A DNA stretch of 64,000 nucleotides. Source: a virus. How positions within the stretch are numbered: the first letter of the stretch is position 1; every line of letters begins with the position of its first letter. The position numbers were made by a program, and so were the translations under genes. This document shows positions 1,678-62,721 of the stretch, piece after piece. Below the pieces are notes generated by a model. The model was not told the DNA's origin. It was given only the letters and a program-made list of their open reading frames with translations, and did not search any database. Where the stretch lies: the UHGV virus genome UHGV-1372088; one strand, written 5' to 3'.

Positions 1678-2156
1678 AGTACAACGTAGGCAAGCTGGGC
1701 CGTCTGGCCGATCGCCTGACGAACTCCCAGAAAGCCTACAAGCGAAGCCTGATTAACGACATGACCAAGCTGGCCGTAACCGCGCAGAGGCTCGCAAGAG
1801 CCCTGGCGCCATACGAAACCGGATCGCTGGAGAACAGCATTTACGCGCGGGTTAACCGAAGCGACCTTGCCAGTCTGTCAATCGAGTTGGTTGTGATGAA
1901 AGACAGAGATAGGGTGGGTTCTCTAAATGGCGGCCGCCGGTACACTGGTGATGCAAAGGTCGGCGATTACGCAGAGTACATGGAGTCTGGCCGATACAGT
2001 CTGGGGGCTCGTTCCAGGCTTAAACAGGGTGGGAATGCGCTTAGCAGGAAGGTTGGCCGACGTTTCATGGACAGGACTGCCGAGTTTATCCGAAATGAAA
2101 TGAGGCGGATCATCGCCGACAGCGCACAGAAGGCCGGCTTCGGCCGAAGGAGATAA
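1668..2156 (+). CDS. HK97 gp10-like head-tail connector/tail component
   Basis: 162 aa; segment LAVTAQRLARALAPYETGSLENSIY resembles gp10-family motif; overlaps neighbours by a few nt (operon coupling). Confidence 0.45.
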   Translation: MGLEYNVGKLGRLADRLTNSQKAYKRSLINDMTKLAVTAQRLARALAPYETGSLENSIYARVNRSDLASLSIELVVMKDRDRVGSLNGGRRYTGDAKVGDYAEYMESGRYSLGARSRLKQGGNALSRKVGRRFMDRTAEFIRNEMRRIIADSAQKAGFGRRR

Positions 2157-2157
2157 C

Positions 2158-2532
2158 GTGATCATAGAACAGTTCGCGACATTGCTGGAAAAGAAGGGTG
2201 TTGGCAAGGTGGGAAAGACCATCTTCGCTAATGCGATGGGGGCGGAGGTAAAGTCTGGCGTCATGGTGGTGACTACAGGCATTGAGATTGATGGGGATCT
2301 GCACGACTTCTATCAGGACAATATGATTGTGGTAGTCCGGGACGCCAGTATCGGCGCTGCAATGAAGCGAGCTGACCTGATTATGGCCGCTTTGCCGATG
2401 TGGGATGAGGAAGAGGCCGGTGTTCGTTTTCGTTACGTCAGGCCGCTGAATTTGCCGACTTTATTCCCAAGGAACGATGCATCTCTGTTTGAGGTGGGAA
2501 TTTCCGTTGAGTTTGCCGCCCATTTGTTGTAA
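2158..2532 (+). CDS. tail completion/terminator-like protein
   Basis: 124-aa ORF with GTG start overlapping previous stop (TAACGTG); last gene before major tail protein as in lambda Z/U position. Confidence 0.4.
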   Translation: MIIEQFATLLEKKGVGKVGKTIFANAMGAEVKSGVMVVTTGIEIDGDLHDFYQDNMIVVVRDASIGAAMKRADLIMAALPMWDEEEAGVRFRYVRPLNLPTLFPRNDASLFEVGISVEFAAHLL

Positions 2533-2610
2533 TGGTTTTATAAGTATGTGTATACTTACCGTGCTTTAGATTAAGCACCCACAATTAAAGGTAAAAGGAG
2601 TTTACCGACA

Positions 2611-3102
2611 ATGGCTAATACCCATGTAAAGAATATCAAGTTAGGCGCCTGTGCTGTTTCTTTCGGCGGCACCGATCTTGGCTACACCAAAGGCGGTGTT
2701 GAGGTAGAGATTTCCACCGAGACGCTGAAAGTCACCGTCGACCAGCAGGGCCAGACCACTCTGTCCGAGCTGGTTCAGGGTCGTAACGTCAAAGTTACCG
2801 TTCCGCTGGCCGAAAGCGTTCTGGAGAACATCGTCAACCTGATGCCTGGCTCTACCATTAGCACGGATAAGAAATCCATCTCCATCACCACCGCTCAGAG
2901 CGTGAATCTGATCGACGTGGCGCAGCAGCTGGTTCTTACCCCGCAGGATGGCACCGACTTCATTCTGACCCTGCCGAAAGCGGCCACCGCCGGCAACTTC
3001 ACTATGGCGTATAAGTTCGATGACGTCCGCGTGTTCTCTGTCGAGTTCAATGCGTACCCGGATGACGCTGGTGTTTTGGGTAGCCTCACCAGCCCAAAGT
3101 AA
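2611..3102 (+). CDS. major tail protein (short form)
   Basis: 163-aa ORF after promoter-like motif and strong RBS (AAAGGAG); precedes chaperone pair and tape measure; ends TAA directly after slippery heptamer. Confidence 0.7.
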   Translation: MANTHVKNIKLGACAVSFGGTDLGYTKGGVEVEISTETLKVTVDQQGQTTLSELVQGRNVKVTVPLAESVLENIVNLMPGSTISTDKKSISITTAQSVNLIDVAQQLVLTPQDGTDFILTLPKAATAGNFTMAYKFDDVRVFSVEFNAYPDDAGVLGSLTSPK

Positions 3103-3356
3103 GTGTGACGGGTGTGACTGTGGCGCCGGCAACTGCGTCGGTCAGGGTCGGTGCAACGACCACGCTGGCCAAAACAGTTTCCCCGTCTAACGCTGACGAT
3201 CAAACCGGCACCTGGACATCCAGTAACCCTGCCATCGCAACCGTTGATACCAAGGGCGTTGTGAGAGGGGTTGCCGCCGGTAATGCAACGGTGACGTTTG
3301 TTACGAAAGATGGTGGCTTCTCTGCCAAGTCTACCGTGACTGTGACGGCATCTTAA
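3093..3356 (+). CDS. Ig-like (Big_2) domain extension of major tail protein reached by -1 programmed frameshift
   Basis: -1 frame opens at 3084; canonical X_XXY_YYZ heptamer C_CCA_AAG at 3093-3099 in correct register, followed immediately by 0-frame TAA; downstream 83 aa (VTVAPATASVRV...TVTVTAS) is a bacterial Ig-like group 2 fold signature. Confidence 0.6.
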   Translation, partial: PKVSVTGVTVAPATASVRVGATTTLAKTVSPSNADDQTGTWTSSNPAIATVDTKGVVRGVAAGNATVTFVTKDGGFSAKSTVTVTAS

Positions 3357-29839: not shown

Positions 29840-30070
29840 GTTAGTTGCAGCCTGATTAATGTCTGCACATCGTCGCAACGTAACGCATTTTGAGACGTTC
29901 TAATCGTTACTGGTACGTTTGCTTATCGACCCTCTCTCCATGCCACCAGCACCCCAATCCCTTCGTTTAAAACGACACCCAAGCCAAGCTATTGCATTTT
30001 ACAGCGAATCGAAAAGCGGCTAGTATTCCCTAAACAAGAAAACAACATGTTTACTAACGAGGCAGTGTAT

Positions 30071-32357: not shown

Positions 32358-32422
32358 TGCCCTTGTGTAGTTTGAAATAATTAACCCATGAAACAAGTTG
32401 TTTAGGAAATAAGAGAAAGGAC

Positions 32423-49207: not shown

Positions 49208-50437
49208 ATGGATCAGGTTAAAGAAGTTGCTGCGGAAAACGAAGGTTCTGAGTGCATTCAGTGCTCGTGGTGTGGCGAGTATAGCCACCACATAGGCCAG
49301 CATCTTCTTAAAGGTCGCTGCAACAACATTCCTGCGGAGCTCGTTGGTCTGGAGCCAGCCGAACTGTTCAAAAAGTACAAGGCGATGCATCCAGACGCCC
49401 CAACCATGAGCCAGCTGGCGGCGGCGAAGATCCGCGAAGCATACAAGAAGGCAGATGGGAAAGTGTCGGCGAAGGATGAGGTTGTCAGCTACGCCATTGC
49501 CGAATTTAAAACAGAGCTAGTGCCAGCTCACGGGGTGTTTGGGTTAAAGCTGTCGGCACTCTCTCGCAGCAATGGCGAGCCGCTGATGGTCAACGTAAAC
49601 GTCAATACGCCGTTCCCAGAACTGGTCCCGGAGATCCGCGAGGACTATGTCTTCGGTGATGTCGAGTTGCTGAAAGATGTCCTGATGATGCTGGAAACCG
49701 GTATCCCAGGCTACATCTTCGGCCACGCTGGTACTGGCAAAAGCACAATTATTTCGCAGGTTTGCGCTCGCCTTAATCGTCCGATGATCCGCGCCCAACA
49801 TACAGCGTCGACTGAAGAGTCGCAAATCGTCGGCCAGATTCTGGCGAAAAACGGCAGCACTTACTTCGAGCCTGGTCTTCTGTCTCTGGCTATGCGCTTA
49901 GGTTGGGTTTATCTGGCGGATGAGTACGACTTTGCCTACCCACAAATCCTCGGAATCTATCAGCCGGTTCTTGAAGGCGAGGCGCTGACGTTGAAAGAGG
50001 CCACTCCAGAGTGGAGAACCGTTAAACCACACGCCAAGTTCGCTTTCATCGGTACTGGTAACACCAACGGATCAGGCGATGAAACCGGTCTGTATCAAGG
50101 TACGAACATTCAGAACGCCGCCAACTTCTCACGCTTTGGCATCGTGGCTGAATCCCAATACATGAAGGCGGCGCAGGAAATCGACATGCTGGTCAATATC
50201 GGCGTCGACTTCGATTCGGCTAAGAATCTGGTGAAGTTCGCGACGGAAGTTCGCTCCGCTTACATCTCAGGAAAGGTGTCGCAGCCAATCGGTCCGCGTG
50301 AGCTGAAGCTGGCAGCCATCGTCGGTCTGGCACGAGGCAATCTCTCTCTTGGCATCAACAAGGCATACGCCAACAAGATGCCGTCCGTCAGCGCCCAGGT
50401 CGTCCGTGAAATAGCCCAGCGCATCTTCGGTGTCTAA
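49208..50437 (+). CDS. CobS/MoxR-like AAA+ ATPase with N-terminal Cys4 zinc-ribbon
   Basis: 409 aa; Walker A GHAGTGKST, Walker B/sensor region LADEYDF; N-terminal CIQCSWCGEY...C. Confidence 0.7.
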   Translation: MDQVKEVAAENEGSECIQCSWCGEYSHHIGQHLLKGRCNNIPAELVGLEPAELFKKYKAMHPDAPTMSQLAAAKIREAYKKADGKVSAKDEVVSYAIAEFKTELVPAHGVFGLKLSALSRSNGEPLMVNVNVNTPFPELVPEIREDYVFGDVELLKDVLMMLETGIPGYIFGHAGTGKSTIISQVCARLNRPMIRAQHTASTEESQIVGQILAKNGSTYFEPGLLSLAMRLGWVYLADEYDFAYPQILGIYQPVLEGEALTLKEATPEWRTVKPHAKFAFIGTGNTNGSGDETGLYQGTNIQNAANFSRFGIVAESQYMKAAQEIDMLVNIGVDFDSAKNLVKFATEVRSAYISGKVSQPIGPRELKLAAIVGLARGNLSLGINKAYANKMPSVSAQVVREIAQRIFGV

Positions 50438-50440
50438 TCC

Positions 50441-50632
50441 ATGAATAAAGGCTGCTTCGGATCATACGTCGTGGCGTCTGAAGTGAATGAGGTTTGTCTG
50501 GCTTGCCCAGACAAGCCTCTTTGCCACGAAAAGGTAAAAGAGACGCTGAAAGAACATTTCGGGGATGTTGAAGGCTTCCCCATCGACAACATAGGAAAGC
50601 GCAGAAAAAGCGCTAAGGCTAAAAACACATGA
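50441..50632 (+). CDS. small Cys-rich protein
   Basis: 63 aa with C..C..C..C spacing (CLACPDKPLC). Confidence 0.3.
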   Translation: MNKGCFGSYVVASEVNEVCLACPDKPLCHEKVKETLKEHFGDVEGFPIDNIGKRRKSAKAKNT

Positions 50633-52998
50633 AAACTTTACTCATTCGCACCGACTTTTCTTTGGGCGAATCGTCTCTTAAGGCGAACAGAGCGCCCATC
50701 GTTGCAGCGGAGAAAGGTTACACCTCGATCATTGTCGCAGATACCAACAATATCGCAGCCATTATCCCGGCCCAGCAGAATGCGCCTGAAGGATTCGATG
50801 TGATCGCCGGCGTTCGGGTGCTACTCGTTGACGACGTGGAGTATGAGCATCGCTTACGTGAAGAAGGGATCGCCAAGAAGGATGCGCCAGCGCCAGTGAG
50901 AAAGCGGATGTATAGCTTTACCATTCTCGTGAAGAACGACGCAGGGTATGGCGATGTGTGCGAGCTACTGACTATCGCCAATATGCGCGAAAACTTTTAT
51001 ATGGTTCCTCGACTGTCTATCGACCATTTGGCCGCCATCTATGCTCGCGGCAATGTGATCATCATGAACAGCGATCGCGACAGTGTTTTCCACCGCGACG
51101 ACTTCGTTAAAATCATTTCTGCGTTGGTCCGTTCCGGCGGCGCAGAGAACTTCTACAGCGTCGTTTACCCGATCTCCACTCCATTGTATGACCAACTCAA
51201 TTCACGCGCTCTGAAGGTCGCACAAGCGCTTAAATTGAATCCTGTGGCCATGTACCCCGCTTACTACGAAAGTGAGGAAGATGCTGACCTGAAAGACGTC
51301 GCGCACCTCGTCATCAACAACATCAAACTCGATCAGGATTATCGCTTCCGCTTCCCGTATCAGCGCGACAACGGCATTCAGGATCGCAAGCATTTACTGA
51401 CCCGGCTGAAAGAGTTTTCTATCCGCATGGGCGTACCGGTTCATCCTGATATGGTCACGGTCAATCAGGACAAAATGACGGAAGCATGTGCGTGGCGGTG
51501 GAAGCCAATGCCAGTCACGCTGCCAAAGCTGGCAGACAACGAGGCGAAAGCGCTGACGGAGCTGGCCATCGCCGGCTTGCGTAAGCGTTTAACGACAATC
51601 CAGTTTGGCTACAAGCCGAATACAAAAGACTTCGGCATATACACCGCTCGCCTGAAGTACGAACTGGAAACGCTTATCAAGTTGGGTTTCTGCGGTTACT
51701 TCCTGATGGTGGAGAATCTGATCAGCTGGGCGCGGAGTAACGACATTCCGACCGGCCCAGGTCGTGGTTCTGCGGCGGGTTCGTTGGTGGCGTGGGCCAT
51801 TGGTATTACTAACATCGATCCGATTCGCCACGGCTTGCTGTTTGAGCGATTCATCAACCCAGAGCGTCTCGACTTACCGGACGTCGATGCCGACTTCAGT
51901 CAGGTCCATCGCCCACGAGTTCTGGAGTATCTGGAATCCCATTACGGCGAAGAGTATGTGGCCGGCATCCCCAACTTCACCTATCTGGGGATGGCGTCGG
52001 CATTGCGCGATACAGGTCGTATCTTTGGCGTCAGCGCGGATGATTTGGCGGTATCGAAGCAACTCAAGCCGTTTGACGACGAAGGTCTGTCTCTGGAAGA
52101 AGCCAGGGAAGAGTTGTCGGCGCTCGACAAGTATGCAAAAGCGAATCCGAAGGCGTTCGAGTCCGCGACCAAAATTCAGTCATTGATGCGTGGGTTTGGT
52201 AAACACGCAGCGGGTGTGATCGTGTCTGGCGTTCCACTGACAGAAAGGACTCCCGTCGAAAGACGTGGTGATTCGCGCTGTATCGCGTTTGACAAGCGTT
52301 ACTGCGAGGCAATGGGTCTTATCAAGCTGGACGTGTTGGGACTGGCTACGCTCGATTTGCTGGCTTTATCACGCCAGTACGTCAAAGAGCAGACAGGTCT
52401 GGAAGTGGACCTCGATGCAATCCCACTGGACGACAAGAAGGTGCTTGGGGAGATGGCGGAAGGTCACACCATTGGAATCTTCCAGTTGGACGGCGGAACC
52501 ATGCGCAAATTGCTGAAGAGCATTGGCGGCGGCATCGAACCATTAACCTTCGAATCTACCGTCGCAGTAACCGCACTCCATCGACCTGGCCCAATGCAAT
52601 CTGGCATGGAAGACACTTACGTCAAGGTGGCGATCGGTTATCAAAACCCAGAGTCGATTCACCCCATGATTGACCACGTTACGGAAAGCACAAACGGCGT
52701 ACTGGTTTACCAGGAGCAGATCATGAAGTCCGCGCAGATTCTGGCCGGATTCACGTTCGCGGAGGCGGACAACATCAGGAAAGCGATTGGCAAAAAGGAC
52801 GTCGAGAAGATGCACAAAATCGGTGGCGAGTTCGTGCAACGCGCGACTGAAGGGTGGATTGAGGTCGAGATGGACGACGGATCGGTTGTCCAGGTTCAGA
52901 AGACGTCGATGCATATGTGTTCCGACGGCAAGCGTCGGACCATTTACCAGGCCATTGACGAAGATGCCGATATTATGATGTTGGACGCCGCGCATTAA
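50629..52998 (+). CDS. dnaE: DNA polymerase III alpha (DnaE-type), N-terminal fragment (PHP + palm/fingers)
   Basis: 789 aa; N-terminal PHP-like start; GYFLMVENLISWARSNDIPTGPGRGSAAGSLVAWAIGITNIDP...FERFINPERLDLPDVDADF aligns with E. coli DnaE catalytic core; ends with 47-aa insertion relative to DnaE. Confidence 0.8.
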   Translation: MKTLLIRTDFSLGESSLKANRAPIVAAEKGYTSIIVADTNNIAAIIPAQQNAPEGFDVIAGVRVLLVDDVEYEHRLREEGIAKKDAPAPVRKRMYSFTILVKNDAGYGDVCELLTIANMRENFYMVPRLSIDHLAAIYARGNVIIMNSDRDSVFHRDDFVKIISALVRSGGAENFYSVVYPISTPLYDQLNSRALKVAQALKLNPVAMYPAYYESEEDADLKDVAHLVINNIKLDQDYRFRFPYQRDNGIQDRKHLLTRLKEFSIRMGVPVHPDMVTVNQDKMTEACAWRWKPMPVTLPKLADNEAKALTELAIAGLRKRLTTIQFGYKPNTKDFGIYTARLKYELETLIKLGFCGYFLMVENLISWARSNDIPTGPGRGSAAGSLVAWAIGITNIDPIRHGLLFERFINPERLDLPDVDADFSQVHRPRVLEYLESHYGEEYVAGIPNFTYLGMASALRDTGRIFGVSADDLAVSKQLKPFDDEGLSLEEAREELSALDKYAKANPKAFESATKIQSLMRGFGKHAAGVIVSGVPLTERTPVERRGDSRCIAFDKRYCEAMGLIKLDVLGLATLDLLALSRQYVKEQTGLEVDLDAIPLDDKKVLGEMAEGHTIGIFQLDGGTMRKLLKSIGGGIEPLTFESTVAVTALHRPGPMQSGMEDTYVKVAIGYQNPESIHPMIDHVTESTNGVLVYQEQIMKSAQILAGFTFAEADNIRKAIGKKDVEKMHKIGGEFVQRATEGWIEVEMDDGSVVQVQKTSMHMCSDGKRRTIYQAIDEDADIMMLDAAH

Positions 52999-53082
52999 AC
53001 AATACAATAAGTAAAGCTGTAAACAATGTAATTAGTAGCGCAGTAAACAAGGTGTTTGCTGCGTCACATGGAGAAAATACAC

Positions 53083-54252
53083 ATGAAAGTCGCAAAAATA
53101 GTGTCCGAAAGACCGGGCTTGTCAGAAGAGAAGGCCAAAGAGATCTGGGACGCATTCGAGAAGTTCGGCGGCTATGGGTTTAACAAATCTCACTCCGCCG
53201 CCTATGCCACCATCTCCTACCAAAGCATGTACATGAAGGTACACCATCCGGCAGAGTTCTTTGCGGCCGCGCTATCCATTCTCGGCGAAGACAAACACCA
53301 GGCGATAGTGAAGGACGCGGCAACTTATGGCGTTCGCGTCATGCCGCCGGACGTCAACATTTCAAGCGGACGCATCGAAATCGGAAAGCTGCCTTCTGGC
53401 CAGATAGCGTTATTCGCCCCCTTCTCTTCCGTTAAAGGTTGCTCGGACAACGGATGCGCTGCCATCGTGAATGCGCGGCAGAAGGTCGGTGGGAAGTTCG
53501 AAACCTATGAGCAGTTTGAGATGGCCGTGGAGAAACGAGCCTGTAATGCTCGCATACGTGAAGGACTGATGCGCGTCGGGGCGTTCGCTTCCATTCAGCC
53601 AGGCACATTGCCGGCAGACGCTGAAGACCGCAAGAAGGATCAGGCGGAGTTGATGGGTAGTCTCTTTACCGGCACCGTGAAGATCGGTCGCGTGTTCGAG
53701 TCGACGCCACGGAAGACGGCGGAGCTGTCCGTTCTGATGGAAGAGATGCGCAGCAAGCTGGGCCTGGGCGAGAGTATGGTGACGCCATACATCGGCCTGA
53801 AGCCAAAGGTCATGATCATCCTGAACAACGCCAATGGCAGTGATGCCAAGAGCGGCATATTCATGAATAAGGGGTATGAGGACTTCAAGGGGCGCATTGC
53901 CAACACTCTGGGTCTCCGTATGGGCGATCTTTACGTCACTGGCGTCATGAAGCGAGCAAAGGGGAAGGATGAGCAGTACACCAAGGATGAAGAGGAAGTG
54001 TTTATCGAAGGTATGCGTCGTGAAATCGAGATCATGAACCCAACATACATCCTTGCGTGTGGAGCTTACGCTTCAAGGCTGTTTAACGAGAAGGACAAGA
54101 TGGGTGATTTGACTGGTCGCAAAGAGTATTTCGCGGACAAAGACTTCACCGTCTTCCATGCTTTCACACCGGGCGTCCTTCACTTCCGCCCGGAGGAAGG
54201 TGAAAAGCTGGATGAAATTTTGAAAGATCTCTGCGACGCGATTGAAGGCTAA
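53083..54252 (+). CDS. dnaE: DNA polymerase III alpha (DnaE-type), C-terminal fragment
   Basis: FEKFGGYGFNKSHSAAYATISYQSMYMKVHHPAEFFAAA matches DnaE ...EKFAGYGFNKSHSAAYA...HYPAEF; separated from N-fragment by TAA + 84 nt containing a promoter-like motif. Confidence 0.75.
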   Translation: MKVAKIVSERPGLSEEKAKEIWDAFEKFGGYGFNKSHSAAYATISYQSMYMKVHHPAEFFAAALSILGEDKHQAIVKDAATYGVRVMPPDVNISSGRIEIGKLPSGQIALFAPFSSVKGCSDNGCAAIVNARQKVGGKFETYEQFEMAVEKRACNARIREGLMRVGAFASIQPGTLPADAEDRKKDQAELMGSLFTGTVKIGRVFESTPRKTAELSVLMEEMRSKLGLGESMVTPYIGLKPKVMIILNNANGSDAKSGIFMNKGYEDFKGRIANTLGLRMGDLYVTGVMKRAKGKDEQYTKDEEEVFIEGMRREIEIMNPTYILACGAYASRLFNEKDKMGDLTGRKEYFADKDFTVFHAFTPGVLHFRPEEGEKLDEILKDLCDAIEG

Positions 54253-59786: not shown

Positions 59787-60072
59787 CAACTCCGTACAAT
59801 AACAAATAAGCAAACAACTTGTTTAGAAAACAGGATTTACGAGTGGTACGCCTTTTAAAAATAAAATCAGCAAAAGAATCGTTTCTAGTGGACGCCAGAA
59901 TGCGTGGTCGACTGGTGTATGTGCCTGGCGGCAATCTGAATGACAAAAGGTTTGTCAGCACACTGAGAAAGCAAAAGTCGTCACACGGGCCTCTTAACTT
60001 GATGAAAACGGGCCAGCTTTACTACAACGCTGGCGACAGGAAACCAGAGAACGGGCAAATGCTGGTGGACGT

Positions 60073-62588: not shown

Positions 62589-62721
62589 TGTTACTTGATG
62601 ATATGTATTCACATAGATAACATATAAGAATAGAGCCTTTCCATATTTGCGGCGCAGCTTAGACGCCGTGGCCAAAACCATATAATTAGCAAACAAGTTG
62701 TTTACTACGTTAGAGAAAATC

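Follow-up and report, generated by a model that had tools for sequence, protein, structure and literature searches.

An endonuclease-free split in a phage-plasmid DnaE-type polymerase gene at a probable homing endonuclease fracture site

The 64,000-nucleotide (nt) stretch of virus genome UHGV-1372088 analysed here (the window) carries a C-family (DnaE-type) DNA polymerase III (Pol III) alpha subunit in two co-directional + strand open reading frames (ORFs), 50629..52998 (dnaE-N, 789 amino acids (aa)) and 53083..54252 (dnaE-C, 389 aa). Why would a replicative polymerase come in two pieces? Is the gene dead, does the break mark a former intein site, or is this genuinely a two-subunit enzyme? These three options were left by an earlier reading made from the sequence alone (the sequence-only reading), whose recognition of the two genes is borne out by the ORFs and by Pfam. 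The two-subunit option is supported by a conserved split, by purifying selection on both pieces and by the retention of the core motifs, but the three options did not foresee a homing endonuclease gene (HEG) fracture site with a mobile module, made of a tail that ends the first piece and a head that opens the second. The locus probably gives an SSU5-like Klebsiella phage-plasmid a functional DnaE-type replicative polymerase in two subunits, its gene fractured at a HEG site, and it is likely that the window holds an endonuclease-free split allele of a HEG fracture site widespread in SSU5-like phage-plasmids and related phages. No description of a split DnaE of SSU5-like elements was found in the searchable literature.

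A polymerase divided over two genes

What does each piece contain? Pfam finds PHP (3.4e-7; 31.2 bits against a cut-off of 26.4), DNA_pol3_alpha (1e-72) and DNA_pol3_finger (5.6e-45) in dnaE-N, which holds the PHP domain, the palm and most of the fingers. The palm of C-family polymerases has three catalytic acidic residues (D401, D403 and D555 in E. coli). In an alignment to Taq Pol III alpha, the window motifs PDVDADF (51877-51897) and KLDVLGL (52324-52344) fall on PDIDTDF and KMDFLGL, and the catalytic acidic residues all lie in the N-piece; the Asp triad, whose loss the sequence-only reading had considered, is intact. The PHP domain starts with MKTLLIRTDFSLGES (50629-50700, residues 1-20) and shows IRTDFS where the canonical His-x-His metal ligands stand. 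Metal binding by this domain is doubtful because the usual N-terminal His-x-His is replaced, and judging by its sequence it is probably not a metal-dependent exonuclease.

The second piece takes over within the fingers. The last fingers helices, from GYGFNKSH (53170-53193, beginning at dnaE-C residue 30) to HPAEF, and the helix-hairpin-helix (HhH) domain are in dnaE-C, while in every unsplit DnaE they belong to a single polypeptide with the rest; the polymerase core motifs are all present but shared out over two polypeptides. Pfam and the Taq alignment thus confirm the division proposed earlier, with the PHP and catalytic core in the first fragment and the HPAEF segment and C-terminal region in the second. 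Pfam matches HHH_6 at dnaE-C residues 83-172 (1.7e-12), and the modelled polymerase part retrieves 2hpi and 5fkv in Foldseek. The internal beta-clamp-binding motif of E. coli is QADMF, and at the equivalent position, after the HhH domain, dnaE-C has the clamp-motif-like QAELMG (53641-53658), in which Q187, E189 and L190 are nearly invariant among 15 C-pieces. What follows is not the usual C-terminus. Pfam returned no match of dnaE-C to the OB fold (tRNA_anti, PF01336) or to DNA_pol3_tau-binding, and gave a weak one (1e-3) to uracil-DNA glycosylase (UDG). In place of the OB fold and the tau-binding domain, the last 155 aa (about 53785-54249, dnaE-C residues about 235-389) have a family-4 UDG fold (Foldseek: 4zbx, E 9e-10, TMt 0.79; also 1l9g, 1ui0 and UdgX). 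Its motifs are degenerate compared with 1ui0 (GEGPG to LNNAN, HPA to TPG), and the CxxC of distant relatives (P0029, P0031, P0035) is absent. The DnaE C-terminus is a UDG fold throughout this phage group; the SSU5-like clade has lost the catalytic motifs and CxxC, and its distant relatives retain CxxC and give a stronger Pfam UDG match. The name 'uracil-DNA glycosylase' that databases give to the C-piece is misleading, as the piece is the C-terminal third of a polymerase.

How is the junction built? The last 48 codons of dnaE-N (52852..52995, residues 742-789) encode the tail, GWIEVEMDDGSVVQVQKTSMHMCSDGKRRTIYQAIDEDADIMMLDAAH. The extra segment noticed earlier at this end is real, one residue longer than the 47 aa first counted. 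A TAA stop at 52996 and an 84-nt spacer follow (52996..53082, with five in-frame TAA codons in all), then a Shine-Dalgarno GGAG (53070-53073) 9 nt ahead of the ATG at 53083 (53070..53085 together), all as described before; in relatives the C-piece is preceded by AGGA or GGGA and starts with ATG. The first 11 codons of dnaE-C (53083..53115) encode the head, MKVAKIVSERP. The break does lie upstream of GYGFNKSH, at 29 residues from the motif and 31 from the presumed site of the cyanobacterial intein, not about 25 as first given. There is no ORF and no HEG in the spacer. A scan for sigma-70 promoters and intrinsic terminators, at its threshold, found neither there; instead of the promoter-like motif that had been suspected, the spacer contains the palindrome AAACAAGGTGTTT (53045-53057), part of a hairpin, GCGCAGTAAACA AGG TGTTTGCTGCGT, at 53038..53064. 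One 12-bp hairpin is predicted, and the folding energy of the spacer is not unusual against shuffles (z = -0.44). Both ORFs share one frame in the window, but this is not conserved, as the spacer of sister plasmid LR890700 has a 1-nt insertion (85-nt gap).

Is the split real? Four complete Klebsiella plasmids (104-113 kb, non-mobilizable, from the UK, Nigeria and Australia; three of them typed as rep_cluster_2470) match the locus at 98.7-99.5% identity. All five sequences compared have the stop after codon 789. The exact N protein is found on 28 contigs and the exact C protein on 80, and clustering at 90% gathers 111 N and 45 C sequences, nearly all of 789 or 389 aa. Among the five plasmid sequences the N-piece shows 29-34 synonymous against 6 non-synonymous differences (dN/dS, or omega, 0.05-0.09) and the C-piece an omega of 0.02-0.19; the spacer is the most variable stretch, with 4 of its 84 positions changed, one of them an indel. 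Further away, both pieces are intact in diverse lineages at 33-65% identity, and in the loci examined they are always adjacent and together. Both pieces are therefore under purifying selection, and the common stop, the exact proteins on dozens of contigs and the low dN/dS (0.05-0.14 for both pieces) exclude error and pseudogene: the split is genuine and old, and hundreds of assemblies keep it. Megablast of the locus against the phage collection gave no match, but tblastn did find relatives, with 61-63% protein-level identity to DnaE of Salmonella phage SSU5 and similar phage-plasmids. A scan of genome contigs with the C-piece alignment returned only chromosomal dnaE genes.

The junction in relatives

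Do relatives share the break? Fifty-seven IMG/VR loci with a UDG-bearing C part were fetched and both pieces mapped onto each; below, L-numbers denote relatives' loci and P-numbers homologous proteins, the listing of the latter covering proteins near query length and not serving for proportions of split and continuous genes. The gene is a single ORF of about 1,170 aa in SSU5 (1172 aa), Cyrano, pJN2-26 and PhiR41_1, and of 1,122-1,130 aa in more distant Rhizobium (B1VFA) and Pseudomonas (nickie) phages; about 35 of the IMG/VR loci are continuous. The sequence-only reading would have yielded to a continuous ORF in relatives combined with a sequencing error here. The continuous ORF is there, in SSU5 and several others; the error is not.

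How does the tail relate to the split? In the alignment, Rhizobium and Pseudomonas phage DnaE has no counterpart of the 48-aa tail or of the 11-aa head, which stand as an insertion against it; the tail is likewise absent from solved bacterial DnaE structures. Across the 57 loci the association is strict: the tail is present wherever a stop separates the pieces, and genes that lack it are always continuous. Continuous genes that do bear the tail are confined to the SSU5-like clade, and SSU5 itself carries the tail and head insertion in frame. Stand-alone C-pieces of 385-421 aa starting MK(I/V)xK... are found from 99% down to 33% identity, and in split relatives the head is conserved as MK(I/V)xK(I/V)(I/V)S. 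A hidden Markov model of the tail, run against 1.84 billion protein representatives, gave 42 matches. The credible ones are all DnaE, with the tail almost always at the extreme C-terminus of 756-791-aa proteins, so by this search the tail module appears to be DnaE-specific and usually terminal, i.e. split. The non-DnaE matches, considered as possible other hosts of the module, were rejected as repeat proteins (ankyrin-like P0163; P0136, P0141, P0157, P0175) with short hairpin-like stretches.

Two further cases may show interruptions of their own. Around the junction of the PhiR41_1-type continuous gene, in E. coli SSU5-like elements, there are many short or N-truncated ORFs (P0009, P0139, P0140, P0143, P0146), among them a 374-aa 'uracil-DNA glycosylase' with 324 member sequences, the others being frameshifted fragments of 71-126 aa; these may be assembly errors or a real decay of the continuous allele. 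In Xanthomonas phage JGB6 (OQ436456.1, 33904-35834) the DnaE match comes in four pieces that fall under features annotated as hypothetical protein, metallophosphoesterase (twice) and AAA ATPase, which suggests another heavily interrupted or mis-annotated phage dnaE.

What lies between the pieces in split relatives? In L089/L090/L091, L094, L105, L115, L138, L139 and L176 the gap is 720-780 nt long and holds one ORF of 233-252 aa, a free-standing HNH_3 endonuclease of either of two architectures: NUMOD4-HNH_3-HTH (L089/L090/L091, L138, L139, L176) or HTH/NUMOD3-HNH_3 (L094, L105, L115). The order is tail-bearing N-piece, HEG, head-bearing C-piece, at the exact junction of the window. Other states are found too: the gap of L144 has a 63-aa NUMOD4 remnant, and that of L109 is 281 nt without a + strand ORF of at least 60 aa. 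At the junction of the basal SSU5-like locus L175 (2113-3486) stand three ORFs (172, 95 and 184 aa) without a Pfam family, and no endonuclease gene. The nearest relatives of the window, at 57-65% aa identity, are splits without a HEG (L172, L173, L100/L101, pCAV1752-111, L174), with spacers of 56 nt in L172, 73 nt in L173, 70 nt in L100/L171 and 73 nt in L174. Where do such empty spacers come from? The L100 spacer agrees at its 3' end with what lies downstream of the L089 endonuclease gene (AATGAC..GGAAAACACATG), and in its 5' part with what precedes the L094 endonuclease gene, the GAAAACAAnTTGTTT palindrome included. Such empty spacers therefore amount to the flanks of the endonuclease gene minus the endonuclease, and the spacer of the window corresponds to these upstream and downstream sequences of relatives as well.

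Is the unit mobile? The split locus L091, with its HEG, and the continuous gene of SSU5 are 97-100% identical at the nucleotide level outside about nt 1980-3200 and 44-80% identical within this tract, whose limits are some 380 nt ahead of the stop and some 120-150 nt past the restart; going by sequence, co-conversion around a homing site would be expected to leave such a pattern. Outside the SSU5 clade, the closest relatives of split loci are tail-less continuous genes, other tail-bearing genes being much less similar (split against tail-less: L105 and L108, 69.6% identity; L115 and L111, 65.7%; P0033 and L119, 78.9%). The parts also recombine: L138 and L115 have tails 76% identical on host C parts 38% identical, with HEGs of different types, and L089 and L094 have hosts 94% identical with unrelated HEGs. 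These comparisons point to a mobile cassette of tail, HEG and head.

Which state came first within the SSU5-like clade? The split is seen on basal and intermediate branches (P0021/L176, with endonuclease; P0016/L175; P0015; P0002; P0003; the L100 group; the window), while continuous tail-bearing genes turn up at three points of the clade and are joined differently each time: ...KLP-MAAVRVTG in SSU5, where the start Met of the C-piece is retained, ...DGIDY-VEIVSEQEG in Cyrano and a longer linker in L102. Because the basal branches are split and the joints differ, an ancestral split with independent re-fusions is suggested; the relationships rest on pairwise identities and on a tree read without branch supports. 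The family thus presents all stages side by side (uninvaded gene, HEG-occupied split, degraded HEG, HEG-free split and re-fused gene with a scar), and for this reason the life cycle of the cassette can be reconstructed and tested.

Assembly, rival explanations and surroundings

How might the two pieces make one enzyme? Two AlphaFold2 models offer a picture: one is of P0005, a naturally continuous homolog (pLDDT 91.4), the other of window residues N600-789 joined to C1-389 (pLDDT 90.3). In the window model the tail is predicted to form strands WIEVEM, VVQVQ and HMC, helix YQAIDE and strand IMML, after which come a three-residue turn, a long strand HMKVAKIVSER and the conserved helix LSEEKAKEIW...GYGFNKSH. 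The head would be this long beta strand, paired with the last strand of the tail. As modelled, the break falls at a hairpin turn in a small beta domain, with one chain supplying the second-last strand and the other the last. Since these final strands would belong to different polypeptides, the tail and head domain may act as a clasp, adding to the native packing of the fingers domain. The mobile unit would consist of a tail of about 45 aa, a stop, the HEG, a start and a head of about 11 aa, inserted in a loop of the fingers domain roughly 20 ancestral residues before GYGFNKSH. The 84-nt spacer would be like other intergenic regions of phages and bring its own ribosome-binding site. It seems reasonable to assume that the pieces are translated separately, because the C-piece has its own conserved Shine-Dalgarno and ATG, and probably from one transcript, because there is no terminator between them; they would then re-associate non-covalently. 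A bolder proposal, which we regard as possible rather than probable, is that tail and head make up a split mini-domain (about 55-60 aa) that is portable, complements itself, travels between very different DnaE genes in the HEG cassette and offsets the fragmentation of the gene without splicing. Functionally this would be the equivalent of a split intein, but non-catalytic and able to outlast its endonuclease, kept in HEG-free splits such as the window and, in re-fused genes such as SSU5, as an in-frame scar. If tail and head do self-assemble, they would provide a small natural non-covalent ligation tag for protein engineering.

Could the pieces instead have parted ways, the 789-aa N-piece being the whole polymerase and the C-piece an independent uracil-DNA glycosylase or HhH DNA-binding accessory? 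Databases do call the C-piece 'uracil-DNA glycosylase' or 'helix-hairpin-helix domain-containing protein', and the fold of its last domain agrees with the first name, but such subfunctionalisation is unlikely: a protein that opens with the last fingers helices and goes on to the HhH domain and QAELMG has the makings of part of a polymerase, the glycosylase motifs have decayed (LNNAN, TPG), and the two pieces always keep together. A degenerate or atypical split intein, by which tail and head would trans-splice into one polypeptide, has in its favour the order of N-piece, HEG and C-piece in relatives, which is that of 'fractured genes' with split inteins (PMC2677866), and the fact that related DnaE genes do have true split inteins, at other sites. 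We consider it very improbable. Neither the N-piece nor the 52-aa tail matches a Hint or intein family in Pfam, even at E 0.01, although that search does pick up the intein halves of L144 (near palm residue 380), L145 (fingers) and P0125. Tail and head together are about 59 aa, whereas the split inteins of fractured genes measure 88-105 aa plus 33-54 aa (PMC2677866). The nucleophiles are missing as well: the tail starts G-W, its first residue in relatives being W, F, E, M, N or Q and not Cys or Ser, and the head is followed by G-L/M-S/T-E, with no His-Asn ahead and no HN-Cys/Ser/Thr at the head/extein border. The module is, moreover, in frame in the continuous genes of SSU5, Cyrano, pJN2-26 and L102. 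The degenerated intein site of the sequence-only reading is thus not upheld.

Its third option, a pseudogene, fares no better. A polymerase broken by mutation or assembly error, in an element relying on the host Pol III, would fit the single ORF of SSU5, Cyrano, pJN2-26 and PhiR41_1 and the fact that PLSDB lists no coding sequence over the region in CP110757; it is hardly credible for pieces that share an identical stop in five assemblies and dozens of contigs, that have intact motifs and low dN/dS, and that are both intact in lineages at 33-65% identity. Might ribosomes bypass or read through the 84-nt gap, as in T4 gene 60, with the His codons CAT before the stop and CAC before the ATG for take-off and landing? 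The shared frame of the window ORFs, the stable hairpin in the gap and CAT-TAA ... CAC-ATG, compatible with re-pairing of tRNA-His, made this worth asking. The idea was dropped because of the 1-nt indel in LR890700 and the differing spacers of relatives (56-73 nt in other frames, or a 700-nt HEG). The five in-frame TAA codons, the lack of conservation of the take-off and landing codons, the C-piece's own conserved Shine-Dalgarno and ATG and the ordinary fold energy of the gap speak against it too, and we rate it the least probable of the four.

A two-subunit polymerase fractured at a HEG site remains the best explanation, and there are points that weigh against it. The window and its nearest relatives have no HEG, so that a HEG origin of this lineage's split is read from relatives of at most 62% aa identity. 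The polarity is unproven: the tail could have come first, as an in-frame insertion domain such as that of SSU5, and have been split by HEGs later. The window model is an artificial covalent fusion, the tail alignment is shallow, and over ten residues at the joint pLDDT drops to 72, against 88-92 around it. In phage Aeh1, where insertion of the HEG mobE into nrdA created tails, these are reported to be essential for assembly of the split reductase, but needed for higher-order assembly and not for heterodimer formation (PMC3045599), and for that reason the clasp picture may be too simple.

What surrounds the break? The spacer palindrome AAACAAGGTGTTT is one of five copies of AAACAA-nn(n)-TGTTT in the window (30040-30052, 32391-32403, 53045-53057, 59812-59824, 62691-62703), where 0.37 are expected and none of 100 shuffles reaches five. 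All five are intergenic, 15-30 nt ahead of a + strand start codon, and a TAATTAG/ATAATTA box often precedes them, as in the TAATTAG / AAACAAnnTGTTT module of the spacer. Relatives have one or two copies in the spacer between dnaE-N and dnaE-C or upstream of the HEG. Its placement gives the palindrome the look of a phage-specific module for gene starts, be it a promoter, an operator or an RNA hairpin. Upstream, the order CobT-like VWA protein, CobS-like AAA_5 ATPase, small ORF and dnaE (window 49208-50632 up to dnaE) is kept in L001-L003 and L172-L176, spanning Pseudomonas Nickievirus and Rhizobium phages to SSU5-like phage-plasmids. The small ORF of the window (50441-50632) encodes a Cys-rich protein of 63 aa, and its TGA overlaps the ATG of dnaE-N.

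Comparison with known systems

How does the locus compare with other polymerases and replication genes in pieces? Cyanobacterial DnaE reportedly carries the naturally split DnaE intein (Wu, Hu & Liu 1998; Caspi et al. 2003). As in the window, a C-family alpha subunit is encoded there by two genes, and the break is in the same short part of the fingers beside FNKSH. We take the Synechocystis intein to sit between Y and G of GYGFNKSH (before CFNKSH in cyanobacteria), whereas the window break lies 31 residues upstream; its genes are adjacent instead of at distant loci, and with no intein the product would be two chains. Because the insertion points are about 31 residues apart, the nearness of the two sites is best taken as a positional or ecological analogy, not homology: the neighbourhood of the most conserved coding DNA is where mobile elements settle.

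Closer in arrangement are the fractured genes of Dassa et al. 2009 (PMC2677866), which include three metagenomic DnaE loci, also broken away from the cyanobacterial intein point. They share with our relatives the order of N-half plus extension, endonuclease, extension plus C-half, in replication genes of phage-like origin, and L144, L145 and P0125 have that arrangement at other sites. The extensions at the DnaE junction differ in not being intein halves, so that no splicing is expected, and its endonucleases are HNH_3, against GIY-YIG or Vsr-like in fractured genes. The L144 and L145 loci are three-piece DnaE genes: in L144 (1128-4771) the intein halves flank a 343-aa ORF without a Pfam match, and in L145 (1894-6122) the intein C-half has an HNH/NUMOD3 domain fused to it. 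The same second site is where P0124 and P0005 begin (MRKLLKDLGGG), and these have no intein. Split gp43 of Aeromonas phage 25 and relatives (Petrov et al. 2006, as cited in PMC2677866) is, according to that citation, likewise a phage replicative polymerase in two genes with a HEG between them, giving two subunits; it differs in being a B-family enzyme with a GIY-YIG endonuclease, and it is not known to have a conserved portable tail module.

The best match is nrdA-a / mobE / nrdA-b of Aeh1 (Friedrich et al. 2007; Crona et al. 2011, PMC3045599). It supplies the experimental precedent for such reassembly, and it too is reportedly a replication-related essential gene, continuous in relatives and cut by a free-standing HNH-type HEG (as DnaE is in relatives of the window), with novel C- and N-terminal tails at a break between adjacent beta strands (predicted for DnaE) and function restored by non-covalent assembly, which for DnaE we infer from genes and models. 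The differences are that the host gene is DnaE and not NrdA and that the window allele has no endonuclease gene; we therefore file the window as a HEG-free derivative or allele of the Aeh1 nrdA/mobE type rather than a full member of it. For Aeh1 the tails are given as unique sequences, while the DnaE tail and head are predicted to be a conserved folded module, found in many divergent lineages, with two HEG architectures and also in re-fused genes. The locus belongs to the known 'genes in pieces' kind, and the added interest is a conserved, apparently portable tail/head domain. It would add a second example of an essential enzyme that a homing endonuclease has cut and junction tails have rescued, spread far more widely than Aeh1 NrdA, in the C-family replicative polymerase of phage-plasmids common in clinical Klebsiella, E. 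coli and Salmonella.

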